From an uncultured Candidatus Saccharibacteria bacterium (lineage in GTDB: Bacteria; Patescibacteriota; Andersenbacteria; UBA10190), in assembly GCA_964371255.1 (NCBI GenBank), contig CAYJKV010000001.1, positions 99,140 to 163,139 of the forward strand: a DNA stretch of 64,000 bases, in the 5' to 3' direction. The notes beneath the pieces were generated by a model, which made no database searches, was not told the DNA's origin, and worked only from the letters and a program-made list of their open reading frames with translations. Below, piece by piece: positions 9,694 through 45,710 of the stretch. The position numbers and the translations under genes are program-made. The number at the start of each line of letters is the position of its first letter. The first letter of the stretch is position 1.

Positions 9694-9731
9694 AATAAAA
9701 TATTTCCTATACTTTATGTTACACTAAGGCG

Positions 9732-25270: not shown

Positions 25271-25274
25271 TATT

Positions 25275-25625
25275 ATGAAAATTGATTGGCAAAGCATCAG
25301 TAATTTAGCGGACAAGAAAAGCTGGTATCAGATCAGCAGTCGCTTGCGGGTATTAGTGCATCAGGCACCGCGCATCTTGTTCATAAGACATAGTCATATT
25401 ATTGACATTATCGCGGTGGGTATGGGGCTGCTGTTGGCCTCCTATTTAGTCTTTCTATTGGTATTTAAACCACCAACCGACATTAACATGAATAATGCAC
25501 AAAAGTGGGATTTGCAGATAGACACCCTTAAAGATTTGAGTAATTGGGTAATTGAGCGTCAAAAGGAAAAAGAAAGAGTACTGGAATTTAACCGCAGCGA
25601 AATATTTAAAATGCCGATTAATTAA
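25275..25625 (+). CDS. hypothetical membrane protein (pilus module accessory?)
   Basis: 116 aa with one TM (IIAVGMGLLLASYLVFLLVF). It lies between the two pilMNO modules. Confidence 0.35.
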   Translation: MKIDWQSISNLADKKSWYQISSRLRVLVHQAPRILFIRHSHIIDIIAVGMGLLLASYLVFLLVFKPPTDINMNNAQKWDLQIDTLKDLSNWVIERQKEKERVLEFNRSEIFKMPIN

Positions 25626-25631
25626 AGACGT

Positions 25632-26684: not shown

Positions 26685-26699
26685 TATAACCAGCAAAAC

Positions 26700-27937: not shown

Positions 27938-28256
27938 CAAACTATTAAATCGCTCTTGGCAAGAGTGGGTAAGAATCGGCGGCAATTACCTGGTAGTAAT
28001 TATTACTCATTCATGGGTGAGGGTTACTATAATGTTATTATTGATGCTCGCTCTGGCCTGGTTATCGTTCACCAGGGGATACATTCCGTTAACAGAGGAT
28101 GTGGAGTTGCCAGTCAGTGTACTGGAAAATAATCCTAGTCTAGATATCAGAACATTACAAACGATCAATACCGATCGGGCAGAACGGGTAAGACGAGAGA
28201 GGCTGGATTACTCTAGTTATGCCAGGGTGTTAGTGGCGCCTGAGAAAAATAATTAA
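27921..28256 (+). CDS. hypothetical small membrane protein
   Basis: 111 aa with one TM. Overlaps the pilO2 end. Confidence 0.3.
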   Translation: MDQSNDKLLNRSWQEWVRIGGNYLVVIITHSWVRVTIMLLLMLALAWLSFTRGYIPLTEDVELPVSVLENNPSLDIRTLQTINTDRAERVRRERLDYSSYARVLVAPEKNN

Positions 28257-28276
28257 GGGCGAAGGCGAGCGGCGTT

Positions 28277-28714
28277 TTGTTTGAGCTTGGAACAATGGAT
28301 TCAAGAGATACAGTATTGGCCTTTGGCACTTTTGATCCTCTTCATCCGGGGCACGAATATTTTTTACGACAGGCAAAAAAATTCGGCGATAAACTCTTGG
28401 TGGTAGTGGCCCGAGACAGTTATATCAGAGCAGTAAAAAAGAGGGAGCCCCGCAAGATTGAGCTAGTAAGGCAAGGTGATCTGCAAAAACTAGGAATTGT
28501 TGATAAAGTGATCTTGGGGAAGGAATGGCCGGCCCAGGATCAATATGGATTATTGCGAGAATTGTCTTATAACGTGTTGGCGCTGGGTTATGACCAACGA
28601 CCTGATGATGAAACGGTAAGAAAAGAACTAGACCAGATTGGCCGCGGGGATGTTAAGGTGGTGAGACTCAAGGCGTATCGTCCTAAAATATATAAATCTT
28701 CTCTGATAAAATAA
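28277..28714 (+). CDS. cytidylyltransferase-like nucleotidyltransferase (HxGH family; RibL/TagD-like)
   Basis: AFGTFDPLHPGHEYFL is the (T/H)xGH nucleotidyltransferase motif. 145 aa. Confidence 0.6.
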   Translation: MFELGTMDSRDTVLAFGTFDPLHPGHEYFLRQAKKFGDKLLVVVARDSYIRAVKKREPRKIELVRQGDLQKLGIVDKVILGKEWPAQDQYGLLRELSYNVLALGYDQRPDDETVRKELDQIGRGDVKVVRLKAYRPKIYKSSLIK

Positions 28715-28726
28715 GGAGAGCAGGAA

Positions 28727-29572
28727 CTAAGAACGCCATTGTTTGAGGACTTGGTCGTATACTTCTGGTGTAGACACATCAAACCACTGATCTTCGAATG
28801 GATAGCCAAACAAGCGGCCAGTGTTGGTTAGTTTAGGAAAGACATCTTTTTCTAACGACAGCGGGCGGGGTTGTTTTTTGATAAAGTCGAAGACGGAGTA
28901 ATCGAAGGCGGCGCATCCGGCGAAAACCAAACGTGAGGTATCGTCGGCGATGACAGGCTTCTCAGAGAATTCCACAATTCGGGAACCGCGTAATTTAACC
29001 GCACCAAAGGCTGATGGATCTACCACCGAAGTTAGGGCCAACGTGCCAACTGCCGCCTTATTAGCCAAATGGAACTGAAGGAACTCAGTCAGATCCAAAT
29101 TAAGCAACACGTCGCTGTAGAGCAAGAGGAAAGGGCTTGGTTCTAAGTGCGGTTGGGCAGCGAGCAGGGCACCGCCTGTCCCGGTTGGTTTGCGCTCTTT
29201 TACGTACGTAATATTGACGCCTAGCCTGGAACCGTCACCGAAATGATGCTCAATTTTATGGGCTAAGTGGCTGACTGTAATCAAGATGTTTTTAATACCA
29301 TGATTGCGCAGTAACGTAATGCCATATTCCAGCAGCGGTTTGCCGTTGACGGGGATTAAGGGTTTGGGAATTTCGTAGGTGAAAGGACGCATTTTGACAC
29401 CCTGGCCACTGGCTAAGATGACAGCCTGATGCGTGTCGATATGCAGGGCACGGCCTAGGACCACTTCGAGGGCGTGGGAACGGTTGCGGATGCGCTGATG
29501 ATCAATGGTGCGATCGAGCGAGTGCAGCAAGTCTTCCCGGATGGTGATGGTAATACGTTCGCGTTTGGGCAT
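28727..29572 (-). CDS. sugar-phosphate nucleotidyltransferase with N-terminal ribbon-helix-helix (CopG-like) domain
   Basis: Residues 1-45, MPKRERITITIREDLLHSLDRTI...SHALEVVLGRAL, fit an RHH fold. Residues 48-281 carry the NTP_transferase motifs AVILASGQGVKMRP...IPKPLIPVNGKPLLEY. Confidence 0.6.
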   Translation of the reverse strand: MPKRERITITIREDLLHSLDRTIDHQRIRNRSHALEVVLGRALHIDTHQAVILASGQGVKMRPFTYEIPKPLIPVNGKPLLEYGITLLRNHGIKNILITVSHLAHKIEHHFGDGSRLGVNITYVKERKPTGTGGALLAAQPHLEPSPFLLLYSDVLLNLDLTEFLQFHLANKAAVGTLALTSVVDPSAFGAVKLRGSRIVEFSEKPVIADDTSRLVFAGCAAFDYSVFDFIKKQPRPLSLEKDVFPKLTNTGRLFGYPFEDQWFDVSTPEVYDQVLKQWRS

Positions 29573-29852
29573 AAGAGATAAGAATAATCAATTTAGAATC
29601 GAAGCAAAGAAGCATTATCTTGTATCATATTATGACATATTTTGCCAGTAGGGGATGGTGAGTGGAATCTTTATCTGTCAGCGGGCGTTGACAAACAAAA
29701 ACCGTGAGGAGCGAGGCAGGAGGGAGGAGGTGGTAGCGGATAGGGTAGCTGGGTACTGTTTGGTGGAAATTAGTTAGGATGATAATAGTGGATTCCAGTA
29801 TGGCGATAAACTAACTCTGTTGTCGGAAGCACAAGCTGATATACTAAGAAGC

Positions 29853-30794
29853 ATGAATGAGGTTGTGTCATTGCCACCCGGGGTCGCCATTGCGATAATT
29901 GCCTTCTTACTGAGCTTGTTGCCAGCAGGGTTATTCATCTGGCTGTGGTATTTGCGACGAGTAGATAGACCGGTACCCAGCCGAACAGTAGCTATATCTT
30001 TCTTGATTGGTCTTTTACTTGTTTGGCCGGCTTTTAAGTTAGAAGCATGGGCGTCAGATGTTTGGTATGCGGTGTCACCAGCGACGGCGCATTATTTTGT
30101 AGGGGCGGTACTGCCGCTGCAGGGAATGGCTGATGTCTTTCTGCCGGCACTGGGCACTTTTGTTGTAGTAGCGACAGTGGAAGAAGGTTTGCGATTTTTG
30201 ATGTTGCTATTGTGGTACAGAAAAAGTCGGGATATTGATCAGGTGTTTGATGGTTTGGTGGTGGGCATAGCGGCCGGACTAGGTTTCGCGACGATGGAGA
30301 ACACGCTATATTTTTTAAATTTATTTACGCAAGGAAGTTTCGATACGCTGGTGTTTGTCTTTTTCCTGCGCTTTATGATTTCAACTTTGGCGCATATATC
30401 GTTCGCAGGTTTGATGGGGGTAATGCTCGCGCGTGGCATCTTTGCTATCTATAAAGTGCAAAAAAGACAGTGGATCATTTTGGCCTTGCTTGTGCCGTGG
30501 TTTTTGCATGGTTTGTATGATCTGTTATTGGGGCTGAATTTGACGATTTATGCCGTGCTGATGTTGTTGCCGTGCTTACTGATATTAGTCGCGTGGATAA
30601 ACCGCCGGGAATTTTTTGCGATAGCCAGACAGCACGGCAAAATATTGGTCAATCAGCGAGCACCGGAAACTCGCTCGATGATAGTGATGCGGAAATATTT
30701 CAAACAAACTGAATCACCCTGGAATATTTATGCTCCCTGGCTGCGCGAGAGGCGTTTGAGGTATACTATTCTTAAGGACTTGGAAAAGGACTAA
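29853..30794 (+). CDS. PrsW-family intramembrane protease
   Basis: EEGLRFL and GFATMENTLYF motifs, with multiple TMs. The track ORF starts with TTG at 29820; the first ATG is at 29853. Confidence 0.6.
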   Translation: MNEVVSLPPGVAIAIIAFLLSLLPAGLFIWLWYLRRVDRPVPSRTVAISFLIGLLLVWPAFKLEAWASDVWYAVSPATAHYFVGAVLPLQGMADVFLPALGTFVVVATVEEGLRFLMLLLWYRKSRDIDQVFDGLVVGIAAGLGFATMENTLYFLNLFTQGSFDTLVFVFFLRFMISTLAHISFAGLMGVMLARGIFAIYKVQKRQWIILALLVPWFLHGLYDLLLGLNLTIYAVLMLLPCLLILVAWINRREFFAIARQHGKILVNQRAPETRSMIVMRKYFKQTESPWNIYAPWLRERRLRYTILKDLEKD

Positions 30795-30796
30795 AT

Positions 30797-31240
30797 ATGA
30801 CTAGAGCACAGATAACGGTGGTGGTATTAATTGCGCTAGTATTACTAGTTGTTTTGGGTTTGGTTGCATCGCGCGTTGGAGGATCAGCAATTCGTACTTC
30901 CGGCCAGGTCCGGATTGGGCAGTTAGAGTTATCCAGTAATAAAATATTACCGGGTGCGCCGGTTACGGTTAGTTATGATTTGATTGAGCTGGACGCGGTG
31001 GATGATGCCTCAATGGTAATGGTTAGGACACCCACGGAAAGCATTGTGATTAGCGAGGTCAGCAGGGCGGAGCTAGGGAACGGTACGTTTATCGTGACTG
31101 TCCCCTGTGAAAAGTATGAAGCACTAGAGAAGAATAAAGCAGGCAGGTTCGTGTTGGTGCTAAACAAAGACCAGCGAGTGCTAGCGCAGAGTGAGCAGTT
31201 TACTTTATTGCCAGCCGGGCCGGAATGCATTTATAAGTAA
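30797..31240 (+). CDS. hypothetical single-pass membrane protein
   Basis: 147 aa with an N-terminal TM (ITVVVLIALVLLVVLGLVA). Confidence 0.35.
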   Translation: MTRAQITVVVLIALVLLVVLGLVASRVGGSAIRTSGQVRIGQLELSSNKILPGAPVTVSYDLIELDAVDDASMVMVRTPTESIVISEVSRAELGNGTFIVTVPCEKYEALEKNKAGRFVLVLNKDQRVLAQSEQFTLLPAGPECIYK

Positions 31241-31303
31241 CAGCCAGCGGATTAACCGAACTACCGCGTTGGCGGTATTTTTTTACGGATGTGATGGGTA
31301 ATA

Positions 31304-32248
31304 TTATGCGACGAGGTCGGGCAGTGACCGGAAGTAATCAATGGTTTTTGTCAGGCCAACGGTCAGGGGAGTGGTCGGATGCCAATTCAGTAATTGCTTG
31401 GCTTTAGTGATGTCCGGTTGGCGACGCTTTGGATCGTCTTGCGGGATTTCTTTATAGACTGGACTGACGGACGGGCCGATCAGGGCAATGACCTGGTCCG
31501 CTAATTCTTGCATGGTAACTTCCTCCGGATTGCCAATGTTAACTGGCCCGGTTTCCTGGTCTTGATTCATCATCCGGATCAGGCCCTCGACATTATCATC
31601 GACATAACAGAAGGAGCGGGTGTGTGAGCCATCGCCATAAATGGTAATGGGTTGCCGGCGCAGAGCTTGGAGAATAAAATTACTGACTACTCGACCGTCG
31701 TCCGGATGCATGCGGGGACCGTAAGTATTAAAAATGCGCACCAGGCGGAGGCTTAAGTTATGTTCACGGTGATAATCCATGCAAAGGGTTTCGGCCACGC
31801 GTTTTCCTTCGTCGTAGCAAGCGCGCGGGCCGAGGCAGTTGACGGATCCTTTGTAGCTTTCCGGTTGGGGATGAACTTCGGGATCGCCATAAACCTCCGA
31901 GGTTGAGGCTTGTAGAATACGAGCTTGCTTGGCTTTCGCGAGGCCAAGCATGTTGATCACCCCTTTGGTGTTGGCTTTAACGGTACGGATAGGATCTTGC
32001 TGGTAGTGAACGGGGGAGGCAGGACAGGCCAGATTATATATCTGATCAATTGGCTGATCTAAATAAAGCGGATCGATAATGTCGTGCTCAAGCAGTGTGA
32101 ACTTTTTATTGGTTAATAAATGCTCAATGTTGCGGTGCTGGCCAGTAAAAAAATTATCAAGACAGATAACCGTGTGGCCGTCGGCCAACAGACGTTCGCT
32201 AAGATGGCTGCCGATGAAGCCTGCCCCGCCGGTAATTAGAATAACCAT
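31304..32248 (-). CDS. UDP-glucuronate decarboxylase (UDP-xylose synthase)-like NAD-dependent dehydratase
   Basis: [14 protein letters not shown] Rossmann motif and the DNFFTG motif characteristic of UXS, plus a YxxxK catalytic region. 314 aa. Confidence 0.75.
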
Positions 32249-32446
32249 ATGCTTTTATAAACATAAGACGGATAAAGGAAAGAGTAAAACGGGTTTAATG
32301 CGCAATGGCCAAGGTCCAAGCAAGACCTCAGCGGTATGGTTAACAACCTATGGCGGCAAGAGAGCAGCGGCAATAACACTAACGAAACATTAAAATATAA
32401 CTTACAAAAAACAGTCCCAGGACTGCTCGTCAAGACGTTTTTTGTG

Positions 32447-32803
32447 TTACGCTTTGCTTTTTTGCACTTGTTCGACGATAGCTTGGAAAGTCTCAGGGTA
32501 ACTGATGGCTATTTCGGAAAGGACTTTGCGATCCAGCTCGACGTTGGTGGCGCGCAGCTGATGGATCAGTCTAGAGTAGGTGGTGCCATGCAATCGAGCG
32601 GCAGCATTGATATCGGTTTGCCACTCTTGCCTTTTCACAGCTTTCTTTTTACGGCGATCAAAGTAAGCGTGCTGGCCGGCTTTCAAGACAGCTTCCTTGG
32701 CTAACTTAAATACTTTACTGCGTCGCCCGCGGTAACCTTTGGCGCGCTTGAGCCACTTATGATGGCGAGCTTTAGTCTGGGGACTGTTGCTGGTGCGTGA
32801 CAT
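32447..32803 (-). CDS. rplT: 50S ribosomal protein L20
   Basis: 118 aa. KRAKGYRGRRSKVFKLAKEAVLKAGQHAYFDRRKKK is typical L20. Confidence 0.9.
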   Translation of the reverse strand: MSRTSNSPQTKARHHKWLKRAKGYRGRRSKVFKLAKEAVLKAGQHAYFDRRKKKAVKRQEWQTDINAAARLHGTTYSRLIHQLRATNVELDRKVLSEIAISYPETFQAIVEQVQKSKA

Positions 32804-32832
32804 ATGGGTATAAAAGATTAATTGGACTTATC

Positions 32833-33027
32833 TTACTGGTAAGGCAATAGATCGTGCAAGTTTGCTTTATCGGCTGACTTAACCAGGCGCCCAGAATGTT
32901 TGCGGCGTGTTTCATCACCAGTGTTCTTGGCATTAAAATGAGATTGGTTAATCGTCTGGTGTTTAGCTTTTCCCCGTGAGGAAAAACTGAATCTTTTATT
33001 GGCAGCGCGGTTGGTTTTTTGCTTCAT
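32833..33027 (-). CDS. rpmI: 50S ribosomal protein L35
   Basis: 64 aa, basic. MKQKTNRAANKRFSFSSRGKAKH. Position between infC and rplT. Confidence 0.85.
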   Translation of the reverse strand: MKQKTNRAANKRFSFSSRGKAKHQTINQSHFNAKNTGDETRRKHSGRLVKSADKANLHDLLPYQ

Positions 33028-33092
33028 AAAATAGGGAGAAAACAGGAAATTAACAGATAAAGAGGCGGAAAATGTATGATAGGGGATAAATA

Positions 33093-33638
33093 CTAACGTG
33101 TCAACAGGGCAGATAAACCGCGAGGCGAGCGTCCAACCCGGCCCTCGATTTTTGCTCCACCGGGCACGGCGACGACAAAATCATGCAGCTTTTGTTCGGC
33201 CATCCGCTCGCGGCTTCGTTCACGGCCGCGAAGGCGTATTTCCAGTTTAACTTTATTGCCTTCTGCCAAAAAGCGGTCAGCCTGAGTGAGGCGAAGGTTC
33301 CAATCATGCTCACCAATCTTGAAACCAATGCGTACGCCTTTAATGTTGCCGGTCTTACTGATTTTCTTTTGTTTGGCTTGTTTCTTACTCTTTTCGTACA
33401 TGTGCTTGCCAACATCCATAAGTCGGGCGACGGGTGGATCGGTTTTTTCGGCGACGACAACCAAGTCTGTCCCCGCTTCCTCCGCTTTCGCGCGAGCTTC
33501 GCTGGTGGGCATGACGCCCAATTGCTCACTGTCGACGCCGATCAGGCGTACTTGAGAAGCAAAAATTTCCTCGTTGGTGGGAGGTTTTTTAACCTGCGGC
33601 TTGGGCCTGGAACGAAAACGGCGGCGACGAGATGACAT
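33093..33638 (-). CDS. infC: translation initiation factor IF-3
   Basis: EIFASQVRLIGVDSEQLGVMPTSEARAKAEEAGTDLVVV...KGVRIGFKIGEHDW. Canonical infC-rpmI-rplT order on the minus strand. Confidence 0.9.
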   Translation of the reverse strand: MSSRRRRFRSRPKPQVKKPPTNEEIFASQVRLIGVDSEQLGVMPTSEARAKAEEAGTDLVVVAEKTDPPVARLMDVGKHMYEKSKKQAKQKKISKTGNIKGVRIGFKIGEHDWNLRLTQADRFLAEGNKVKLEIRLRGRERSRERMAEQKLHDFVVAVPGGAKIEGRVGRSPRGLSALLTR

Positions 33639-33980
33639 AGTGGAATAATTTCAAAATCCAAATGACAAATGTCAAAAGGAGATAAGTATAACTTAAATTT
33701 TAGAGTGATGCGGTTTTGCGCATCTGGGGGGTATATTAGAGGTTATTTTCGCATTTGGCAATATGAGGATGAATAGCTACTTAGGAATACCTTATCTGTG
33801 AATGGTTTCTGAGTGTGTTTATGAGGTATTGGTTGGTAACTAAATGTCCAATGACCAATAACCTAAAAGTCAAAGCTCAATTGATCCTCCTTTTTCGAGA
33901 AACATAAATGATCATAAAACAGTTTTTACTATCGAGGGTCGGTATTTTTTTAGTAGGGGAGGGATGCTATTGTTAAATCT

Positions 33981-34427
33981 ATGAAAACAGTTGTTAACAA
34001 AAGGGCAAGGTTTGATTATGAGTTGATTGAAAAATACGAAGGAGGGCTTGTTTTGTTGGGTACTGAAGTAAAGTCGGTGAAGGCGGGGAATATCAGTCTC
34101 AAAGGATCCTTTGTGACTTTTCATGGTGATGAACCATATCTAACAAACGCGACTATTCCGCCATGGCAGGTGATTAACGCGCCGGCCGATTATGACCCAG
34201 AACGGTCTCGAAAGATATTGCTTACCAAAGCGGAAATAAAAGAGTTGATAGGAGCGAAACAGACAAGGGGGTTGACAATAGTGCCTGTGCGTGTCTATAC
34301 TAAAGGACCTCGAGTAAAAATTGAGATAGCGTTGGCTAAGGGAAAGCAAATGGTGGATAAGAAGAAGGAAAAGAAGGAGAAAGATATTGCCCGGGAAACG
34401 CAAAGGTTTTTAAGAGGGAAAGAATGA
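33981..34427 (+). CDS. smpB: SsrA-binding protein
   Basis: 148 aa. RARFDYELIEKYEGGLVLLGTEVKSVKAGNISLKGSFV is a typical SmpB core, with a basic C-terminal tail. Confidence 0.9.
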   Translation: MKTVVNKRARFDYELIEKYEGGLVLLGTEVKSVKAGNISLKGSFVTFHGDEPYLTNATIPPWQVINAPADYDPERSRKILLTKAEIKELIGAKQTRGLTIVPVRVYTKGPRVKIEIALAKGKQMVDKKKEKKEKDIARETQRFLRGKE

Positions 34428-34648
34428 AATGTCCAATGACCAATTCCCAATGTCCAATCAATGACCAAATCCCAAAGATAATAGACACAAATTAATATCA
34501 AAATATAAACAGAAAATCTAAGGTGTTGTTTGTTGAATTTATAATTTGTTAGGATTTCGTGAAGAAGGGAGAGGTTGAGAGTAGTTAGTCTGACCGGCGC
34601 TGTAGTTTGCTAACGATGAGGGGCATGCCCTGTCGTTCGCGAACGACA

Positions 34649-35039
34649 GGGCATGTTAGGCTTCGATGGAATGTTGTTTGTTCAATTAGCGTGTAGTGAG
34701 GGGTGAATGACTCACTCAAATCAATTGTTCACAAAGTTACGTGCAAACTTATTTAGTCGCGTGAAGGCAGCTTTTGCTCCTTCATTTGCGCCAGCTTTCG
34801 CTTAATACCGAAAGCCATCGTGTTAGATCAGCCGTTGGATCTTCTCACGGTGTCAACCTAAACGGCTATATATATTGAGAATTGAGAGGCTTAATATACA
34901 AACTGCACTAAATCTCACACTGTCTGGAATACTTGGCTGGTCTGCTGGTTCCAGGTAGTGTAAAAAAATTAGTCCAGCTACACACGTAGAAAATTGGATA
35001 ATATCGTTTCAGACGGCGGTTCAATTCCGCCCATGTCCA
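34649..35039 (+). ncRNA. ssrA: tmRNA (transfer-messenger RNA)
   Basis: The 5' end GGGCAUGUUAGGCUUCGAUGG matches the tmRNA 5' consensus. The 3' end GACGGCGGUUCAAUUCCGCCCAUGUCCA has a T-arm plus acceptor strand that pairs with the 5' GGGCAUG, including a G-U at position 3 as in E. coli. CCA is not encoded. It lies immediately downstream of smpB. The candidate tag ORF at 34767-34805 encodes AAFAPSFAPAFA, ending in AFA as in some known tags. Confidence 0.75.
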
Positions 35040-35173
35040 CTGATATGAGGGAAGGGAGGTATCCCTTCCCTCATCGAAAAATTGCCTGGCAATTTTCCTG
35101 CTCCTATTCCACAAGGTGTCCTCAGTTTCCGGCGGAGCCGGAAATTCGGATTTAATTAAAATGTACTTGACCC
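35031..35173. repeat. repeat R1: ssrA 3'-end plus ~130-bp downstream unit with three palindromes
   Basis: Begins CCATGTCCACTGATATGAGGGAAGGGAGGTATCCCTTCCCTCA, then AAAATTGCCTGGCAATTTT, then TTCCGGCGGAGCCGGAA, then a T-rich run ending ATGTACTTGACCC. Copy 1 overlaps the true tmRNA 3' end. Confidence 0.85.
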
Positions 35174-35283
35174 TCTTTTTATTGACCCCCTTTTTACCAC
35201 ACCGTTGACATAATGAAAATAAAATTATACTTTAGGCAGTCCAGTTAAGACTGTTATTTCAACTTACAATAAAGGAATGGGCA

Positions 35284-36051
35284 ATGAATCCATACATCGG
35301 TATTACCGACTTCATGGACTTCGGACAAGTTCAGGAAATGTCGCAAGGGTTTGCCGCTCATCAACCGCTAGGATCAAACCGGATGTTACATGTGGGTGTG
35401 ATGATGAGCTACAAGACGCTTCATGGCATCCTGAGCAAGTGGCAAGATGTTTTCCCTTTGAAGGAACGGATTGCTAGCATCTTTTCCTCTAGCAAGGTGT
35501 ACAACTGTTTGCACTACGCGGACTACGACAACAATCCCGATCTCGGGAAAAGTCTTGCAACCGCGGTCTCTTATGGTGGCATTGGCATGCATGCCCTTCA
35601 ACTCGACATGACCTGGCCGGATCGGAATGAGATCGCAAAAGGAGTTCACACTTCGTGTAAGCAGATCGAAGTTATTCTCCAGATTGGCAAGAATGCACTG
35701 GAAGAAGTCGGCAACGATCCGCAAAGAGTTGTTGAGCGTCTAGGTGAGTATGAAGGCGTGGTCCAACGCGTATTGCTAGACAAGAGTATGGGGAGGGGGC
35801 TCGGCATGGACGCTGCTAATCTCATCTCGTTTGTGCGAGCAATTAGGAAAAGTTTTCCAACGCTCGGAATTGGAGTTGCTGGTGGTCTCGGACCGGAAAC
35901 GATTCAGTTGGTCGAATCGCTTGTCGCAGTGTTTCCGGATTTGAGCATTGATGCTCAAGGAAAACTTCGTCCGAGCGGGAACGCTCTCGATCCGATTGAT
36001 TGGGACATGGCTCGAACTTACCTTATTAAAGCCCATCAGCTTTTTGCCTGA
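35284..36051 (+). CDS. TrpF (phosphoribosylanthranilate isomerase)-like TIM-barrel protein
   Basis: N-terminal YIGITD and C-terminal VAGGLGPE...DLSIDAQGKLRPSG...KDxxxxxF echo TrpF motifs. No other trp genes are nearby. It lies between repeats R1 and R2. Confidence 0.45.
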   Translation: MNPYIGITDFMDFGQVQEMSQGFAAHQPLGSNRMLHVGVMMSYKTLHGILSKWQDVFPLKERIASIFSSSKVYNCLHYADYDNNPDLGKSLATAVSYGGIGMHALQLDMTWPDRNEIAKGVHTSCKQIEVILQIGKNALEEVGNDPQRVVERLGEYEGVVQRVLLDKSMGRGLGMDAANLISFVRAIRKSFPTLGIGVAGGLGPETIQLVESLVAVFPDLSIDAQGKLRPSGNALDPIDWDMARTYLIKAHQLFA

Positions 36052-36155
36052 TGACAATCTTGCAGCTCTCGCTCTTTGTAGTGAGAGCTTTTTTTGCTTA
36101 ATTTAGTAACACAAACAAACGAAATAACTCCGTCCGCAAAGTGTTCCAACCGTTT

Positions 36156-36289
36156 CCGCCCATGTCCACTGATATGAGGGAAGGGAGGTATCCCCTCCCT
36201 CATCGAAAAATTGCCTGGCAATTTTCCTGCTCCTATTCCACAAGGTGTCCTCAGTTTCCGGCGGAGCCGGAAATTCGGATTTAGTTAAA
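36156..36289. repeat. repeat R2 (copy of R1 including TTCCGCCCATGTCCAC ssrA 3'-end segment)
   Basis: About 95% identical to R1 over ~125 bp. It shares 16 nt of the tmRNA 3' end and diverges in the last ~15 bp. Confidence 0.85.
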
Positions 36290-36321
36290 TTTCAAACATC
36301 GGGTGTTTGAATTTTCTAACT

Positions 36322-36948
36322 CTAGTTTGGATTGTTTGGCTCGTTTTTGATTGAAATAGTAGGAGACGCACCTCTAACTTTAATACCCCCTTTGTTTGGC
36401 CGCTCAAACATGGCAAATTCCCTTAGTCTCTTTTGATTAAGTTCCTTCGACATTCTTATATTATCCTGGGCAAGACGTTCTGCTAAATTAACGGCTCTAT
36501 CAGCTAAGGCGCCTGTTCGCACGTTCTCGCTTTTTAAAGATTGGGTTAAGTCGGAAATATATTGATTCATTGTCTCTCGTGATTTTTCCGCCTCCCTATC
36601 CAGTCTGACTTTTTCCTCAATTACTTCAGTAACGGGGCGAAGTCCTCCCTTAATCCCAAAAAAATTAAATCCATCGAGTGAAAAGAGCAGATAAGCAAAA
36701 ACCCGTTTAAAATAAAGGAGTCCAAACAATGCCACTAATGGCCAGGGTAGTTTTTCCAGGACGGGAGCTGACTTTTCAATCAGTTGTAATAAGCGATTGA
36801 ATTGAACTTCAGAGAAAACATCAATGCTCGCATAGATACCAGCGCCAATTGTTCCCACGAAAAGGAGGAGCCCTAAAGTTATATCAATTCTTAAACTGAT
36901 ATTTTTTAATATTCCGATAATTTCTTTTATTCCTATCCTCCGAAACAT
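36322..36948 (-). CDS. hypothetical membrane protein
   Basis: 208 aa with 2-3 TMs at the N-terminus and a charged coiled-coil C-terminus. Flanked by the TTCAAACATCGGGTGTTTGAA hairpin repeats. Confidence 0.4.
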   Translation of the reverse strand: MFRRIGIKEIIGILKNISLRIDITLGLLLFVGTIGAGIYASIDVFSEVQFNRLLQLIEKSAPVLEKLPWPLVALFGLLYFKRVFAYLLFSLDGFNFFGIKGGLRPVTEVIEEKVRLDREAEKSRETMNQYISDLTQSLKSENVRTGALADRAVNLAERLAQDNIRMSKELNQKRLREFAMFERPNKGGIKVRGASPTISIKNEPNNPN

Positions 36949-37384
36949 ACCGTGATTATCTCTCTGTAGTCCTAGAAGTCAATTAGACGTGAGGCTGTAA
37001 ATATTGCGTCTTCATGAAATTCAAACACCCGACATTTGAAAAGCCATGACCAGGCCGATAAGGGCGATATCTGGCCTATCGGTATAATAATTGAGATTCA
37101 AGCAATATTTACATATCTGCATGTGTGCCGTAGAGCAGATGGTGCCAGGACTATTGCTGATACATTACACTTACTATTAGATTATGAGGGCTAGAAGCCG
37201 TATTGTGGTTATTCAAACATCGGGTGTTTGAATTTTTAATTTTTGGAATGCTGTTTTTTTTCAAAACAGACCAAATAAACCCCTTCGCATAGTCTGGCAT
37301 TGATTTTGCCACTAAATAGCCTCATTATACAGAACAGACGTTCTTTTTGGTTGGGGTACCTTACATTTCTAATTTTATGAAGGG

Positions 37385-37582
37385 ATGGGTCACATGGCTC
37401 AGTTTGATGATCTTGAGCTAAACAGAGCCGCAGAAGAGGTACACGCGGCTGCGCAGGCTGGCAGAGACGGTTATAGTGATGCTGCCACGCGCTGGCTAGA
37501 CGAGACAACGGATGCGGCCAAGCAAGCCATCAATGACAGAGTTGTCGAAAAGTACGGGGAGGAACATCGGCGCAAGTTTTAG
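37385..37582 (+). CDS. small conserved hypothetical protein (paralog A)
   Basis: 65 aa, with its own RBS (GAAGGGA) and a terminator hairpin after the stop. Its C-terminus AINDRVVEKYGEEHRRKF parallels the 41380 ORF. Confidence 0.5.
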   Translation: MGHMAQFDDLELNRAAEEVHAAAQAGRDGYSDAATRWLDETTDAAKQAINDRVVEKYGEEHRRKF

Positions 37583-37726
37583 TGTGCTAGAAGGCAAGCG
37601 AAGCATATCGACGAGCGCACAGTTCTTAGATAGCGACATCGAACAGATCCAAGACAACCGCCGTGGGTAACTGCAGCGGTTTTTTAAAATCGCTCTTGTA
37701 ATACAAGTAAACCAAACAACTTTTTT

Positions 37727-37895
37727 CGCAAAGTGTTCCAACTCGATCTCACCATGTCCACTGATATGAGGGAAGGGAGGTATCCCTTCCCTCATCGAAA
37801 AATTGCCTGGCAATTTTCCTGCTCCTATTCCACAAGGTGTCCTCAGTTTCCGGCGGAGCCGGAAATTCGGATTTAATTAAAATGTACTTGACCCC
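37727..37895. repeat. repeat R3 (third copy, contains CCATGTCCAC ssrA 3'-end segment)
   Basis: Near-identical to R1, including the tail ATGTACTTGACCC. It shares the upstream CGCAAAGTGTTCCAAC with R2. It is followed by a C7-T4-C9-T8 homopolymer tract. Confidence 0.85.
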
Positions 37896-38266
37896 CCTTT
37901 TCCCCCCCCTTTTTTTTCCTCTTGTTAATTATCGTCGCAAATGAATGAATTAAAGGAAATGAATTAAAGATTAATCCTTTAATACTATTTCATATGCCCT
38001 AGTCTACGACCTGCGAGGACATATGTTTGTGGTGAATACCATACATCCTTGACATGGAGACTGTAAGTATCTAGATTTGTTGGTTCAGGTTTGTTTGGTC
38101 GCTTCGCGTTGTTCATTACAGAAAGGTGGGTAAGATGCCAGGAGGAATTCGTTTGCAGCGTGATTCTCGTGAAGGGCGGCGTTGGTTGCACACGATTCGA
38201 GGTACTGTTACTGGCCATGCCGTACGGGTTACGGGTTGGTGGATCTTTAAGGAGCGGATTGCGATT

Positions 38267-41379: not shown

Positions 41380-41568
41380 ATGAGTCGTTGGGATGATGAT
41401 GTGTTGAGAGAGGCGGCTAATTATGTCCATTATGAGCTTGGTAATGATCGGGATGCATACCAAGCAACAGCGCGACGGTTTTTGAATGACGACAGTACGG
41501 AGGCGCTGCAGGCAATCAACGACAAGGTGGTTGATTTGTTTGGGCATGATTATCGGGTGCGCTTTTAG
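41380..41568 (+). CDS. small conserved hypothetical protein (paralog B)
   Basis: 62 aa. Its C-terminus AINDKVVDLFGHDYRVRF is paralogous to 37385..37582. It has its own RBS and terminator (CCGTCTAC..GTAGACGGTTTTT). Confidence 0.5.
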   Translation: MSRWDDDVLREAANYVHYELGNDRDAYQATARRFLNDDSTEALQAINDKVVDLFGHDYRVRF

Positions 41569-41995: not shown

Positions 41996-42153
41996 GAACG
42001 TCGTGCTGCAGCCGCTTGGTCAGAACCCCTTCATCCTTTGACATGGCTTAGGGTGAGTGCGTTAAGGGTTCTTTTTTATTGTTGGCAAGATAGGTATGGC
42101 CTCAATTGAGAAGCGTCGGGGGCAATTAGCGCCGGAGTTAATGGGGTCTTGAT

Positions 42154-42182
42154 TTGACATTATAGGAAGACTCGTATATAAA
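42154..42182 (+). promoter_or_regulatory. sigma70-like promoter upstream of csrA
   Basis: TTGACA, then a 17-nt spacer, then TATAAA. The downstream leader contains GGA motifs (CAGGAT, AGGAGGAG) overlapping the SD. Confidence 0.45.
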
Positions 42183-42245
42183 TTTTACGGTTGTGTTCTT
42201 TTTAGATATCGGGACAGGATTCCATTTGGGCAGGAGGAGAAGATC

Positions 42246-42449
42246 ATGCTAGTACTCTCGAGGAAAAAAAACGAGTCGATTGTCATCAACGATGATATCA
42301 CGATAGTAGTTGTGGAAATTCGTGGTGACAAGGTTCGGCTCGGGGTCGATGCACCGAAAGAGGTTCCTGTGCACAGGCGCGAGGTATACGAGGCGATTCA
42401 ACGAGAACTCAGGGATAGTGAGGTTTTGCCAGAAGATGAGACTGGTTAG
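42246..42449 (+). CDS. csrA: carbon storage regulator CsrA
   Basis: [51 protein letters not shown] is a near-canonical CsrA. 67 aa. Confidence 0.9.
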
Positions 42450-42609
42450 CTTTCTTCCTTTTGTGGGTTCCTGTCCGCGTCAGTAAATTTTACAAAATTT
42501 CCTGGCGCTTTTTTATATCAAATCAAGTTTGATGAGTTGTGCCTAGCTTTTGTGTCGTGGTTTGGCGGAGTGCTTGACATTCCTTGCTGGTTTTTGTTAG
42601 GTTAGAAAT

Positions 42610-42711
42610 ATGAATTTAGCACTAGCACAATTCGGTTGGTACAGCCTGTTTATGATGATTATTCTGTTCGTGATGAACGAACATGTGCTAGGTATTGATG
42701 TAAGCGCCTGA
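42610..42711 (+). CDS. candidate small hydrophobic peptide (33 aa)
   Basis: ATG...TGA encoding MNLALAQFGWYSLFMMIILFVMNEHVLGIDVSA. It lies between a TTGACA -35-like element and a strong terminator hairpin at 42741-42772. Not in the track because it is under 60 aa. Confidence 0.25.
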   Translation: MNLALAQFGWYSLFMMIILFVMNEHVLGIDVSA

Positions 42712-42740
42712 AGAATTAATAAATAGACCTTTACATGAGC

Positions 42741-42772
42741 CCCTAGCACATAGCTAGGGACTTTTTGTTTTG
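42741..42772 (+). terminator. rho-independent terminator
   Basis: CCCTAGCACATAGCTAGGG stem-loop followed by ACTTTTTGTTTTG. Confidence 0.6.
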
Positions 42773-42802
42773 TACCTTTGTACCTTTGAAAGTTAGGTTT
42801 GT

Positions 42803-44173
42803 GTGTCGTTATCTGAAAGGAGTGGTAAGAGTATGGCTTCTGTGGGTTTGAATCTGACAGGCTTTAAGAGTGAGACAGAGGTTCTCGTCCAGATTGCTCG
42901 TGACCTTGGGCAGTACCACCGTGAGGGTAGGCAGAGTGATTTTATCAGGACGTTAGAGTCACTTGGTATGGATACCGATGAGGCACGGCAGTATTGGGAG
43001 GCGTTGTTGCCATCAAAGGAATGCAACGGTCAGTGGAGGCATGCACGCAACAATTCCGAGCTGGCAGGCTTGCTTGGAGTGCTTTTGGACGGCCAGAAGA
43101 TCTTGCGTAACCGCTTGCTCTATCGGCTGGTTGAGTGTCACTTTCCAGACATTCTGCAGGCTCGGTTTACGGGACTTTACCACTTGGGTGGCAAGGCCAG
43201 CCGAGGTAACCATCCTGAGCGGCGCATGGTCCATTTCGACAAGTTTCCTTTGGGCAGAGATGGTCAGTCAATGGCTGTTCACTACCTCTACAAAGGTGTT
43301 CAGCCGGCGCAGTTTGCCGCAGAGGTTATGAGGGCAGCCGTTCCATTGCAAGAGGTCTTGGGTGAGGCGTTGGGCATTAAGATGGCTGAGTTCATCTTTA
43401 ACCACAAAATGTTGATTCCTCCCCCGACGGTAGCACGGCTTCTAGCAAGAGTGATCGAAGCTGGTCAACAGGGGCAGTCTATCACTGTCGTAGGGGCTTT
43501 TTGTCCGGATTATGCCTATGAAGAAACGGGGAATCCACAGATTCCCTATCGTTACACCTTTGATGGCCTCGGCCAAGGTGTCGGACTAGTCGCTCAGCAG
43601 TTTGCGCGCATCGTGCCTGGCTTCTCTCGACTCCTCGCTGAGCTTGGTGTGTCGCACCAGATCGTGCTGGCGATTGGCGATTTCGAGGCTGATTCTCAGG
43701 CAGTACTTGACCGCGTTGGTGTTGATCGCAACGAATTTGTTCGGCGCTGCCAGGGTTCACTCGATGCGTTCCAACAAAGGATTCCCAACGACATTCCATT
43801 ACAGCTCGAGCTATTCGCAGCAGCTCGGGGTGGTGAACGGTTTCGTCGTTACGCGACTGAGGCCACTGCTCGGTTCCTGCAGGACGATTTTGGCCATATG
43901 GTCGATGTTTATCCCAGTCTGAGTAACGTTATTGCACGAATTCCTGCGCAGTACCAGACCTTTTACGAGCGTTGGTATAAGTGCGGTATGGACGATAAGC
44001 AAGTGCGTGGGATTGTCTTCGCTCAGGGGGGTGAATATTCAGCCATGGCTCGCATCTTCACCGAGGATTTCGGCAGCAATATTGTGGTTCTAGCTGGCGA
44101 CCGGCCTGAGATGCATCTCTTTAACTGTCTGTATCAGGCGGTACCAGCGTTGTGTGCCAAAAGAGCTTATTAA
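42803..44173 (+). CDS. hypothetical protein, unknown family (456 aa)
   Basis: Long ORF with GC richer than its surroundings. I recognise no motifs in it. Contains ITVVGAFCPDYAYEETG and GGEYSAMARIF segments. Confidence 0.5.
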   Translation: MSLSERSGKSMASVGLNLTGFKSETEVLVQIARDLGQYHREGRQSDFIRTLESLGMDTDEARQYWEALLPSKECNGQWRHARNNSELAGLLGVLLDGQKILRNRLLYRLVECHFPDILQARFTGLYHLGGKASRGNHPERRMVHFDKFPLGRDGQSMAVHYLYKGVQPAQFAAEVMRAAVPLQEVLGEALGIKMAEFIFNHKMLIPPPTVARLLARVIEAGQQGQSITVVGAFCPDYAYEETGNPQIPYRYTFDGLGQGVGLVAQQFARIVPGFSRLLAELGVSHQIVLAIGDFEADSQAVLDRVGVDRNEFVRRCQGSLDAFQQRIPNDIPLQLELFAAARGGERFRRYATEATARFLQDDFGHMVDVYPSLSNVIARIPAQYQTFYERWYKCGMDDKQVRGIVFAQGGEYSAMARIFTEDFGSNIVVLAGDRPEMHLFNCLYQAVPALCAKRAY

Positions 44174-44241
44174 CTTTCTTCTCTTGTTCCCTGCCCGTTG
44201 TTATTCTAGACTACGGGCAGTTTTTCTTTAATATTATATGT

Positions 44242-45363
44242 ATGAAATCTACCGCCTATTTACTCGTAGACGATCGTGGACCAGAGATACGACATCGCAG
44301 TGGTCTAACAGCTCCAGATAAATTTATTTATCTTGCACCCATGGACGGGGTGCCAGTAGTATTTTTTGATGCTCGGGAGTTTGGCATACAGAAAGAAAAA
44401 TTAAATCAGTTGAGAAATGGTGTTGTCATTAAGGCATTAGAACCCTATATGGCAAAAATACAAAAAAAATCCGCTGGGCCATTCGTCGCGACATTATTGG
44501 CAATATTAAAGGAAAACAAAATAGATAATCTATTAGTATCAGCATCGTTGCCTTACGTTATAGCTCATGAGTTAGAAGCAGCAGGGAAAAAACTTACTGT
44601 CTATTCGTACGAAAAAGAACGGGAACATAAAACTTCCCAAGAACTTAATTACATTATTGATGCTCAGCGTGTTAATGAACAGGCGTTCGAATTAGCCTGG
44701 AATATCTTGAAAGAAAGCAAGATAAGAAGAAATCGACTAATGTATCGTGAGCAAGTGCTTACTAGCGAACTGCTGAAATCGATCATCAGAAAATTTCTTT
44801 TGGATCAAGAGTTAGACTGTCCAGATGGTATTATTGTGGCTTCTGGTGACCAAACAAGTAGGCCGCATGATATGGGAGAAGGTCCGCTACTGCCGAATGA
44901 GTGCATTATCATCGACATTTTCCCGCGTTCAGAAAAAACAGGGTTCTTTGCTGACATGACCCGCACCTTTGTTAAGGGAGAACCAAGTGAAAAAATTAAA
45001 TCATTATTTACGGCGGTGGAGGCTGTTCAAAAAAAAGTTGCTGCCAGTATTGAAGTTGGAGATTCTTGTGCACAAGTTCATCAACTGACCATTAATGCTT
45101 TTGCTGACTTGGGACATCCTGCTTCTCATGAATGTGGCTTCATGCATGGCACAGGCCATTCATTAGGTCTTAGCATTCATGAAGGTCCTTACCTTAATGC
45201 TCATGCCGATCGCAATGTTGAGCCAGGAATGGTTTTTACTATTGAACCAGGGTTGTATTACCCGGATATTGGTGGGGTACGCATTGAAGATATTGTGATT
45301 TTTACAGCGGCAGGCGAGAAAAAAAATATAAATCATTTTGCTAAGCCTTGTTTTATACTATGA
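44242..45363 (+). CDS. M24-family metallopeptidase (Xaa-Pro aminopeptidase/creatinase-like)
   Basis: C-terminal pita-bread fold motifs HGTGHSLGLSIHE and VFTIEPGLYYPDIGGVRIEDIV. The start was chosen at the internal ATG 44242. The track start at 44152 overlaps the upstream gene. Confidence 0.75.
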   Translation: MKSTAYLLVDDRGPEIRHRSGLTAPDKFIYLAPMDGVPVVFFDAREFGIQKEKLNQLRNGVVIKALEPYMAKIQKKSAGPFVATLLAILKENKIDNLLVSASLPYVIAHELEAAGKKLTVYSYEKEREHKTSQELNYIIDAQRVNEQAFELAWNILKESKIRRNRLMYREQVLTSELLKSIIRKFLLDQELDCPDGIIVASGDQTSRPHDMGEGPLLPNECIIIDIFPRSEKTGFFADMTRTFVKGEPSEKIKSLFTAVEAVQKKVAASIEVGDSCAQVHQLTINAFADLGHPASHECGFMHGTGHSLGLSIHEGPYLNAHADRNVEPGMVFTIEPGLYYPDIGGVRIEDIVIFTAAGEKKNINHFAKPCFIL

Positions 45364-45710
45364 ATAAGTTTGTTTTTTCTAAATCAGACGCGACAAAATA
45401 CAGTATAGACGGAGGGAAATGTTATTTATATCCACATAGTTCTACTGGACGCCTATCGGCAGCCTTAGTTGAACAAGAAGGTCGATATCCATCGGATGGT
45501 TACCGTCAGAATGTTGTTTGCACGGAGGCAATATTCATCGTTCAAGGAGATTTTATTATTACGTTAAATGGTAAGATAAATAAGTTGAAACCACACGATG
45601 TGGTTTACATAGTTCCCGGCACTCCTTACGCAATAGAGGGCAAGGGGACTGTTTTTGTTTTTATTGAGCCAAAGTGGGATTCTACCCAAAACACAGCAAC
45701 TGTTGGGTGA
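45360..45710 (+). CDS. cupin-domain protein
   Basis: About 116 aa with a beta-rich cupin_2-like core (IFIVQGDFIITLNGK...VVYIVPGTPYAIEG). ATGA overlap with the upstream stop. Confidence 0.5.
   Translation: MNKFVFSKSDATKYSIDGGKCYLYPHSSTGRLSAALVEQEGRYPSDGYRQNVVCTEAIFIVQGDFIITLNGKINKLKPHDVVYIVPGTPYAIEGKGTVFVFIEPKWDSTQNTATVG

Follow-up and report, generated by a model that had tools for sequence, protein, structure and literature searches.

Does the csrA gene of an uncultured patescibacterium control the genes that follow it? The question is raised by a stretch of 64,000 nucleotides (nt) of contig CAYJKV010000001.1 (positions 99,140 to 163,139 of the forward strand; called the window below), assigned to the Andersenbacteria in GTDB, in which csrA is followed by a small hydrophobic open reading frame (ORF) and by a larger gene, here called X. 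A first-pass annotation of this sequence had proposed that the small ORF and the larger gene are linked to CsrA, as an effector under its control or as its antagonist. Our follow-up points elsewhere. We consider it rather probable that the locus consists of two independent units, namely a monocistronic csrA and an operon of X, an M24-family metallopeptidase and a small cupin that would be controlled by a ribosome-mediated transcription attenuator, with X as a putative Cys enzyme. The idea of a CsrA module is very probably wrong.

csrA and the X operon

The following elements, numbered from the first position of the window, make up csrA and the coding part of the X operon.

42154-42182, plus strand: putative csrA promoter, TTGACA-N17-TATAAA, read from the sequence and not reported by the consensus scanner
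42190-42245, plus strand: 5' leader of csrA, about 56 nt, with four GGA triplets, including ACAGGAU and the Shine-Dalgarno (SD) sequence AGGAGGAG
42246-42449, plus strand: csrA, 67 amino acids (aa), with Pfam and NCBIfam profile matches
42477-42514, plus strand: intrinsic terminator of csrA, GCGTCAG...CTGGCGC and then T6, a 32-nt hairpin with a free energy (dG) of -12.1
42833-44173, plus strand: X, 446 aa, with a helical N-terminal domain (residues 1 to about 195) and a C-terminal Rossmann domain (about 196 to 446) like those of cyclodipeptide synthases (CDPSs) and aminoacyl-tRNA synthetases (aaRSs) of class Ic
44191-44225, plus strand: hairpin CTGCCCG...CGGGCAG (7 bp, 16-nt loop) followed by T5, read from the sequence between the stop codon of X and the start of the M24 gene
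44242-45363, plus strand: M24-family metallopeptidase gene, 373 aa, Pfam Peptidase_M24
45360-45710, plus strand: small cupin gene, about 116 aa, whose ATG overlaps the stop codon of the M24 gene

X, the M24 peptidase and the cupin form an operon conserved across the Patescibacteria, the candidate phyla radiation (CPR). Neighbourhoods of X were taken from assemblies, 27 GTDB species genomes and 28 metagenome contigs, and all loci (L numbers below) were queried by tblastn with the CsrA, X, M24 peptidase and cupin of the window. Of the 41 distinct loci that extend far enough downstream, 40 contain all three operon genes (the cupin with about 115 aa); these 40 all belong to the Patescibacteria, and in some lineages the order is X-cupin-M24. 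The sole exception, L011, is a contig of alphaproteobacterial appearance (its neighbouring genes are of alphaproteobacterial type: NDUFA12, MlaD, RibD and ChpT-like), which carries three tandem X paralogues of 522, 485 and 609 aa (positions 8001-13622), with the X catalytic domain behind differing N-terminal regions, and has neither an M24 nor a cupin gene. The gene upstream of X differs between relatives, being a DUF3850 gene in L068 (X 71% identical to that of the window) and a PHP-domain gene in L002 (63%). The linkage of csrA and X implied by the first-pass annotation is confined to the window, together with the identical metagenome contig L001, and to one five-species subclade of Peribacteria type. 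Since close relatives carry other genes at this position, the adjacency of csrA and X in the window is recent.

csrA itself is a genuine, full-length and ordinary member of the CsrA family, judging from its profile matches, which all exceed the curated cut-offs and bear out the original assignment: it matches Pfam CsrA (PF02599) at 1.9e-27 (95.4 bits, cut-off 27) and the NCBIfam CsrA equivalogs NF002469 (92.9 bits, cut-off 73) and TIGR00202 (90.4 bits, cut-off 70.1). The 67-aa protein has the size of the family (about 60-75 aa), an N-terminal MLxLxRK strand and, within the sequence VPVHRREVY, the Arg that is conserved in the family motif VHR(E/R)E. The 60 nt upstream of csrA contain four GGA triplets (at 42212, 42217, 42233 and 42236), of which two lie within the SD, as the first-pass annotation had noticed, and ACAGGAU is found 16 nt further upstream. 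Four or more GGA occur in just 3.3% of the 60-nt windows of the whole stretch (P(>=4)=0.033), and the csrA leader has the highest count among 16 gene leaders, none of the others checked having more than two. This enrichment is real but modest. In Escherichia coli csrA is autoregulated, and the spacing between a site in the SD and a GGA 16 nt upstream suits bridging by one CsrA dimer. By analogy, it is plausible that CsrA represses its own translation through these leader sites.

While the window csrA thus resembles the autoregulated csrA of E. coli (CsrA/RsmA) in its full length and in the position of these two sites, it differs from known CsrA/RsmA systems in its CPR host and in that neither a FliW partner nor a decoy RNA of the CsrB/RsmZ type was found for it. 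No FliW or flagellar Pfam domain was detected in about 28 ORFs (those within 10 kb on either side of csrA, and FliW-sized ORFs elsewhere) in a scan of the window that was not exhaustive, in agreement with the first-pass annotation, and no FliW gene adjoins csrA in L008; the host, a CPR bacterium, presumably has no flagella. A CsrB-like decoy RNA between csrA and X was considered and rejected, this region being poor in GGA. The gene looks monocistronic because its own terminator lies directly 3' of it and because the same layout follows csrA elsewhere, a hairpin with a T-run being present 3' of csrA in L008, L028, L029 and L031 (sequences read).

Could csrA, the small ORF and X nevertheless form a CsrA-centred module, in which X or the small RNA or ORF is a controlled effector or an antagonist? 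The distance from csrA to the downstream X is 0.4 kb in the window and 0.4-1.3 kb in five species of Peribacteria type (L008/L030, L027, L028, L029 and L031). These two apparently independent juxtapositions are commoner than chance placement would suggest and tell against two independent units, a reading that leaves them unexplained. The richness of the csrA leader in GGA would also fit a module, as would the GGA present in segment 2 of the X leader (described below) in 13 of the 15 Andersenbacteria-type leaders aligned (A10). Yet csrA ends at its own terminator and the X unit has its own promoter and attenuator; csrA is not found upstream of X in about 27 other distinct loci, L068 and L002 among them; and four of the five Peribacteria loci have a cupin paralogue of opposite orientation between the two genes. 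The GGA sites that the first-pass annotation suggested looking for in the X leader are scarce in the window, with 2 in 223 nt (42610-42832) versus a background mean of 4.8; one is in the terminator stem and the other in the SD. The window and its closest relative L040 are moreover the only two of the 15 aligned leaders without GGA in segment 2, and Rfam finds no CsrB/RsmZ-like RNA. Being poor in GGA, the leader speaks against a direct control of X by CsrA in the window. We therefore regard a CsrA-centred module as quite improbable. The small ORF and the large gene, which the first-pass annotation had joined to CsrA, have instead a promoter and an attenuator of their own and M24 and cupin partners, and csrA is a self-contained neighbour of X in a minority of lineages.

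A probable switch in the X leader

The elements recognised between csrA and X, all belonging to the leader of the X operon, are the following.

42574-42603, plus strand: leader promoter TTGACA-N18-TAGGTT, read from the sequence, with the transcription start expected at or next to the ATG of the leader-peptide ORF
42610-42711, plus strand: leader-peptide upstream ORF (uORF), 33 codons, hydrophobic, with a single Trp codon at 42637-42639
42622-42628, plus strand: segment 1 (CTAGCAC), able to form an anti-antiterminator by pairing with 42685-42691 (weak support in the window, z -1.3)
42687-42700, plus strand: segment 2, predicted to supply the antiterminator with its 5' strand and situated in the 3' part of the uORF
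42734-42747, plus strand: segment 3, the predicted 3' strand of the antiterminator, of which 42741-42747 doubles as the 5' arm of the terminator
42741-42767, plus strand: attenuator terminator CCCTAGC-ACATA-GCTAGGG and then ACTTTTTG (stem 42741-42759 plus T-run)
42680-42779, plus strand: match to R1, a covariance model of the leader core (80.2 bits; the window sequence is in the training set)

The first-pass annotation had described a hydrophobic ORF of 33 aa bracketed by a promoter and a terminator, and we confirm this arrangement (promoter at 42574-42603, terminator at 42741-42767). The window and about 30 homologous leaders agree in this layout of promoter, uORF and terminator upstream of X: in most homologous loci X is preceded by a sigma-70-type promoter at a distance of 240-340 nt and by an intrinsic terminator at 40-210 nt, and the other leaders carry at the same place an ATG uORF of 23-43 codons that begins 6-13 nt after the -10 box.

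An alignment of 13 Andersenbacteria-type leaders (A7), the basis of the covariation counts for terminator and antiterminator, displays the conserved core C(U/C)GGAAGUU(G/A)AUGG ... AUCUUU-loop-AAAGAU ... CCAUGAGCUCCC(A/G)G ... C(U/C)GGGAGCUC. Terminator and antiterminator are mutually exclusive in this alignment and have the strand CCAUGAGCUCCCAG in common. The terminator is paired in 90.8% of the cells, with 5 pairs changed on both sides (slid controls, 28-64%), and the antiterminator in 82.1%, with 9 double-change pairs (slid controls, 35-54%); the antiterminator column 128/190, for example, is U-A in 7 sequences and C-G in 6. Among 500 shuffles of the antiterminator none reached the observed percentage of pairing, the number of cells changed on both sides or the covariation score, and a single one reached the observed count of double-change pairs. 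We consider it highly likely that a terminator/antiterminator switch exists in this leader. The role of segment 1 as anti-antiterminator is a weaker part of the model, in which we have moderate confidence. Its variants differ by subgroup (CAACUUCCA, CCAUUAAUUUCG and, in the window, CUAGCAC) in step with segment 2, as read by eye from the alignment, and its pairing with segment 2 is significant in some individual leaders only, being stronger in several relatives than in the window and consistent in position.

The logic of uORF, antiterminator and terminator recurs in three CPR clades. In leaders of the Peribacteria and Moraniibacteria types, the 5' arm of the terminator pairs with a 3' segment of the uORF once the 3' arm is removed, which holds for all 11 further leaders with a terminator. 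This alternative-pairing segment of the uORF ends at most about 30 nt from the stop codon, and the sequences are unrelated to those of the Andersenbacteria type. The leaders of Peribacteria type (L005, L008, L021 and L025-L031) also have a second conserved element between the terminator and the start of X, about 60-150 nt upstream of X, which consists of a hairpin GGGCAG...CUGCCC followed by GACC(U/G)ACG(C/U)A(A/G)AGGAAAGG and is there with or without csrA nearby.

Run over 525 kb (the window plus the loci), the covariance model R1 finds the motif upstream of X, including in L057, which was not used for training. Weak matches also reach into other clades and include L025, L033 and L056. Within the window the model gives one match on the plus strand and one weak match on the opposite strand that overlaps 42680-42779. 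Three matches lie off the main X leader. One is a second copy of the RNA core in L002 (8897-9053; R1 match at 8940-9036, 43.7 bits), which has its own TTGACA promoter and a uORF of six codons (MSRMLR) and precedes a 143-aa gene just after the cupin; since it fronts this gene, the switch appears to control at least one other gene. The other two are weaker matches directly upstream of the main leader in L023 (5630-5728) and L057 (1626-1726), whose position suggests tandem duplicated leader-terminator units.

A possible signal for the leader

In the mechanism that we propose, transcription would start on the ATG of a leader ORF of 23-43 codons or a few bases ahead of it; the 3' part of this ORF would serve as the 5' strand of the antiterminator, and the 3' strand of the antiterminator would be the 5' arm of the terminator just upstream of X. 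A ribosome that finishes the leader ORF would cover the antiterminator strand, so that the terminator forms and transcription stops. If the ribosome were to stall before that point, for which a shortage of charged tRNA-Trp at the one conserved Trp codon is the most plausible cause, the antiterminator would form, and X, the M24 peptidase and the cupin would be transcribed.

A Trp codon is present in 19 of 22 uORFs picked regardless of composition, where about 40% would be expected from the Trp frequency of the window proteins. When the set is widened to GTG and TTG starts the count becomes 29 of 32, and 19 of 22 is the sole unbiased figure because the additional ORFs were picked for Trp. Between clades the leader peptides are not conserved except for this single Trp, often followed by His or another aromatic residue. 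In leaders of Peribacteria type (MYICAGRHLWNVFTTKGGGHVSQ) the Trp codon is located in the loop at the 3' end of segment 1, which is the geometry of trpL, and there a ribosome stalled at Trp would free segment 2 for the antiterminator. The conserved single Trp and this trpL-like geometry are the reasons why we favour ribosome-mediated attenuation by charged tRNA-Trp.

The leader shares several properties with the attenuators of E. coli. As in trpL, pheL, pheM, hisL and thrL, a short ORF stands near the promoter; the first structural gene is directly preceded by an intrinsic terminator; the antiterminator shares a strand with the terminator and would be masked by a ribosome at the end of the leader ORF; and an upstream segment can sequester the antiterminator strand. 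Unlike the E. coli attenuators, the X leader has a single Trp codon and a leaderless or near-leaderless uORF with no SD, its antiterminator is unusually conserved, and the genes that it regulates are neither a biosynthetic operon nor a canonical aaRS.

Several observations weigh against the reading just given. A recognisable SD was found in none of the uORFs, so that leaderless or near-leaderless translation is needed, and four leaders (L004, L019, L020 and L022) have no clean U-tract. As for the sensing of Trp, the uORFs contain no tandem Trp codons and no run of a sensed codon, part of the conservation of Trp-His coincides with an ATGCCA/TGGCAT hairpin, and in the window the Trp codon is 46 nt upstream of the antiterminator strand. 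The primary structure of segment 2 raises a further difficulty: its G, T and A positions are invariant beyond what pairing needs, A.C and G.G mismatches are kept in 10-11 of the 13 sequences, and the frame in which the conserved nucleotides are read changes from leader to leader. Lastly, the second copy in L002 has a uORF of merely six codons, without Trp.

The primary structure of segment 2 and the short uORF of the L002 copy, together with the missing SDs, would fit an RNA that binds a ligand or a protein at least as well in the case of the invariant positions, and a ligand- or protein-dependent antiterminator is indeed the main rival to ribosome-mediated attenuation. The leader would then be a riboswitch or a protein-dependent antiterminator, its long hairpin (segment 2, inner hairpin and segment 3) binding a metabolite, a tRNA or a protein. 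Against this stands the translational design of the leaders: the ATG of the uORF hardly varies and keeps a constant, short spacing to the -10 box, the reading frame is open for 23-43 codons in 25 leaders, compared with a median of 13 codons for another frame, and the stop of the uORF invariably falls within the antiterminator strand or just beyond it. The clades of Peribacteria and Moraniibacteria keep the logic of the switch with unrelated sequences, which a shared aptamer would not predict, and Trp is kept across clades despite differing nucleotides. Rfam, searched at gathering and at permissive E values with the window leader and with 11 whole loci including their leaders, revealed no riboswitch, T-box or Csr RNA, and no family matched the leader even at E up to 10. 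In our judgement a binding-dependent antiterminator is unlikely.

Another alternative takes the 33-aa ORF at face value, as a functional hydrophobic micro-protein, or the promoter-to-terminator unit as a stand-alone small RNA unrelated to X. The flanking promoter and terminator, the hydrophobic nature of the peptide and its 67% aa identity in L040 would fit such a unit. In three clades, however, the leader unit always lies immediately upstream of X and in the same orientation, the peptide is not conserved between clades apart from the Trp, and within the uORF there is always a second sequence with which the terminator's 5' arm can pair, an arrangement that marks an attenuator. We hold a free-standing peptide or RNA to be extremely improbable. 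Returning to ribosome-mediated attenuation, we lean towards a switch that depends on the ribosome, and we advance the sensing of Trp, through charged tRNA-Trp, as a tentative proposal to which we would not quite give an even chance.

The X protein, its partners and its setting

The first-pass annotation had given X 456 aa. Its ORF is indeed open from GTG 42803, but ATG 42833 sits behind AAAGGAG and is the likely start, giving 446 aa; the identical database protein of 446 aa starts there and all homologues align from there. Whether X was searched alone or as a profile, no match emerged from Pfam, NCBIfam or the PDB sequences, and the protein fits no described family, in keeping with the first-pass annotation, which could not place it. 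Weak matches to PprA and to a de novo helical bundle were dismissed, for they fall in the N-terminal helices. An exhaustive profile search yielded 419 representative clusters (50% identity) at E <1e-3, most of them of proteins of about 400 aa, which have the C-terminal part of about 260 residues in common. The 81 close homologues are all unnamed or "hypothetical" and come, where the source is named, from Candidatus Andersenbacteria, Moraniibacteria, Komeilibacteria and Parcubacteria; 40 distant members gave no family assignment or informative name, including a look-up of the cluster members of 10 of them. On the strength of these searches X appears as the founding example of an unannotated enzyme family. 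Its invariant or nearly invariant positions are C224-P-D-Y227, D283-F-E285 (GDFE), Y378, W381, Q398 and E401-Y402 (QxxEY) and D423 (D(R)P); at the C terminus, the 52 closer homologues (A1) all share R444 and Y446.

The AlphaFold2 model of full-length X (predicted local distance difference score, pLDDT, 92.5; predicted template-modelling score, pTM, 0.84) has a helical N-terminal part and a five-stranded Rossmann-type domain at the C terminus, and the latter modelled alone reaches a pLDDT of 94.6 and a pTM of 0.91. A Foldseek search, the check that the first-pass annotation had recommended for this protein, returned CDPSs and tyrosyl- and tryptophanyl-tRNA synthetases (TyrRS/TrpRS). With the full-length model all of the top 28 PDB matches belong to these two groups (probability 0.75-1.0; 5ocd, 6ez3, 2x9q, 5mlp, 6y4b, 3oqh and others for the CDPSs, 6bqy, 2jan, 2cyc and 4jfa for TyrRS/TrpRS), and with the X domain only the ranking is the same (E down to 1e-4, probability about 1.0, template-modelling score (TM) 0.42-0.54, 8-13% identity). 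A fold like that of the CDPSs and aaRSs is therefore likely for the modelled domain.

CDPSs are defined by a Rossmann fold similar to class Ic aaRSs and by the almost strictly conserved residues S37, Y178, E182 and Y202 (PMC7566563). The Pfam CDPS family (PF16715) is matched by none of the 52 close and 40 distant X members even at E up to 10, and hhalign of the X family (A6) against an alignment of 18 CDPSs (A5) gives a probability of 0.2%, with no signal against a single CDPS. HIGH and KMSKS are not among the conserved columns of A1 or A6, and there is no Pfam tRNA-synt match. For want of motifs and of Pfam or profile matches, we place X neither in the CDPS family nor among the aaRSs and regard it rather as a remote structural relative of both; membership in the CDPS family was dropped because hhalign gave no signal, and the statement on the fold was kept.

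A comparison with the two groups makes the position of X clearer. With CDPSs (PF16715; AlbC, YvmC and Rv2275) it shares the class Ic aaRS Rossmann fold, the lack of ATP-binding signature motifs and, in our reading of the motif, a potential acyl-accepting residue directly after strand 1. It differs in having Cys instead of Ser, an extra N-terminal domain of 195 residues and a beta-hairpin inserted after the Cys motif, and in showing no sequence or profile similarity, equivalents of Y178, E182 and Y202 not being identifiable. Its genomic company of M24 and cupin is also unlike that of CDPS loci, with their cyclodipeptide oxidases, P450s and methyltransferases. With TyrRS/TrpRS it shares the fold of the catalytic domain at TM 0.3-0.5, and regulation by a leader peptide, as for pheST, would be a functional parallel; unlike them it has no HIGH/KMSKS, no anticodon-binding domain and no match to Pfam tRNA-synt_1b.

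Cys224 lies directly after strand 1 of the X domain, in the motif G-A-F-C-P-D, where CDPSs have G-I-S-P-F (A5); TyrRS presumably has G-F-D-P-T after this strand, and we take the Ser that directly follows strand 1 in CDPSs to be their acyl-accepting residue. This position in the model suggests that Cys224 replaces the acyl-accepting Ser37 of CDPSs, an equivalence that is putative, being drawn from the place after strand 1. This purely positional basis, the modest fold match (TM about 0.5 at 8-13% identity) and the negative hhalign comparison all count against our view of the chemistry of X.

It might be asked whether X is a genuine CDPS after all, making a diketopiperazine from two aminoacyl-tRNAs, with the M24 protein and the cupin as tailoring enzymes. 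CDPS structures are its best or joint-best fold matches, the size of its catalytic domain fits, and a residue of the nucleophile type follows strand 1. This proposal has to contend with the negative Pfam and hhalign results, with the lack of identifiable counterparts of S37, Y178, E182 and Y202 (PMC7566563) and with the extra domain of 195 residues. Induction by amino-acid starvation would moreover be odd for an enzyme that consumes aminoacyl-tRNA, and the X operon is found among housekeeping genes across a phylum-level radiation, unlike the sporadic CDPS clusters. We consider a true CDPS improbable. Our best guess is instead that X works on an aminoacyl or peptide substrate by covalent Cys catalysis and that its induction follows the stalling of ribosomes in the leader; that it uses aminoacyl-tRNA is doubtful at best.

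The partner proteins are of recognisable types. The M24 protein matches Peptidase_M24 (PF00557) at 9e-41 (140 bits, cut-off 23), and its residues D225, D238, H306, E335 and E349, which we take to be the five metal ligands expected for the family, are invariant in alignment A3. The cupin of the window matches Cupin_2 (PF07883) weakly, at 21.5 bits and below the gathering score of 27.2, and its homologues are flagged as Cupin_2, sometimes weakly; no His is invariant in the cupin alignment (A2), and the usual His metal ligands are absent. Together with a prolidase-like M24 peptidase, X would help to supply amino acids by salvage in auxotrophic CPR cells. In one version, the target of X would be an amino-acid-derived compound (a diketopiperazine, aminoacyl ester or aminoacyl-tRNA, for instance) whose amide or ester bond it would open or transfer, and the peptidase would then free the amino acids. 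The complete picture, a new family on the class Ic aaRS/CDPS scaffold with a catalytic Cys, forming with M24 and a non-metal cupin a salvage pathway under a Trp-sensing attenuator, is speculative, and we put it forward as doubtful.

Some loci add to the description of the operon. Prephenate dehydratase, chorismate mutase/prephenate dehydrogenase and an aminotransferase lie directly 3' of X-cupin-M24 in L006 (9120-11942), and a prephenate dehydratase abuts the trio in L005 (8989-9891); these neighbours hint at a possible connection with the metabolism of aromatic amino acids. In loci of Peribacteria type another cupin paralogue, of about 160-180 aa and extended by a hydrophobic stretch at its N terminus, lies upstream of X: in L027-L029 and L031 on the minus strand between csrA and X, and in L005 at 5065-5610. 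In the window, the hairpin between X and the M24 gene (44191-44225) could be a second, internal terminator or a processing site. The M24 gene, one intact ORF in the window, is called as two pieces in L001 (5152-6379; 237 and 163 aa), probably because of an assembly frameshift or strain variation. The first-pass annotation had described the large ORF as richer in GC than its surroundings. It does exceed its immediate neighbours (52.8%) but is similar to the IF3, epimerase and EamA-like genes of the window (average GC 0.47), and the outliers near X are the downstream genes, with a GC content at third codon positions of 0.31-0.32 for M24 and cupin versus 0.55 for X. Transfer from a lower-GC relative, replacing a portion of the operon, may account for this split.

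The surroundings include the gene of the transfer-messenger RNA (tmRNA), ssrA, whose proximity the first-pass annotation had taken as a sign of an accessory region. The tmRNA is indeed present at 34649-35042 (detected by Rfam, missed by ARAGORN), but the repeats resembling attachment (att) sites stop at 37914, 4.3 kb before csrA. These are three direct repeats, 96-98% identical and situated within 34977-37914 (at 35025-35160, 36154-36289 and 37752-37914), which comprise the last 18 or so nt of the tmRNA and 118-165 nt of its 3' flank. Two short inserts separate them, one with a 255-aa ORF and the other with a 208-aa ORF on the minus strand and a 65-aa ORF, and the whole looks like the remnants of tandem integration at ssrA. 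An ssrA-integrated island containing csrA and X was rejected on account of the distance from the last repeat to csrA and because no further copy was found. Two paralogous small ORFs, at 37385-37582 (65 aa, ...AINDRVVEKYG) and 41380-41568 (62 aa, ...AINDKVVDLFG), lie in the ssrA-proximal insert and just upstream of csrA, respectively, and both are without a match in Pfam and NCBIfam. The X trio of L002 and L012 stands between type IV pilus genes and a block of epimerase, L20, L35, IF3, SmpB and tmRNA genes; in the window the epimerase-to-tmRNA block is upstream, at 31304-35042, and the trio has moved to the far side of the tmRNA (21500-34500 compared).

Patescibacteria make up a large and mostly uncultured share of bacterial diversity and have small genomes with few known regulatory systems. 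The X leader is a cis-regulatory RNA of the CPR that behaves, as far as its sequence tells, like a classical leader-peptide attenuator, a type of control documented mainly in Proteobacteria and a few other phyla. The literature that we searched contains no description of the X family, of the X-M24-cupin operon or of attenuators in the CPR. The mechanism of attenuation is known already; what appears to be new is its occurrence in the CPR and an unannotated family within a known fold class. The three-gene operon is spread over Andersen-, Peri-/Peregrini-, Moranii-, Komeili- and other Parcubacteria, with no examined member functionally annotated, and the X family comprises at least 419 sequence clusters without a Pfam or NCBIfam model, CDPSs and TyrRS/TrpRS being its only structural relatives. 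If the proposed Cys chemistry is true, more enzymes would derive from the class I synthetase scaffold, and the tandem paralogues of L011, with their other N-terminal regions, would represent a second use of this chemistry. The attenuator points to a physiological signal, the limitation of an amino acid, probably Trp, and thereby offers a starting hypothesis for the biochemistry of X.

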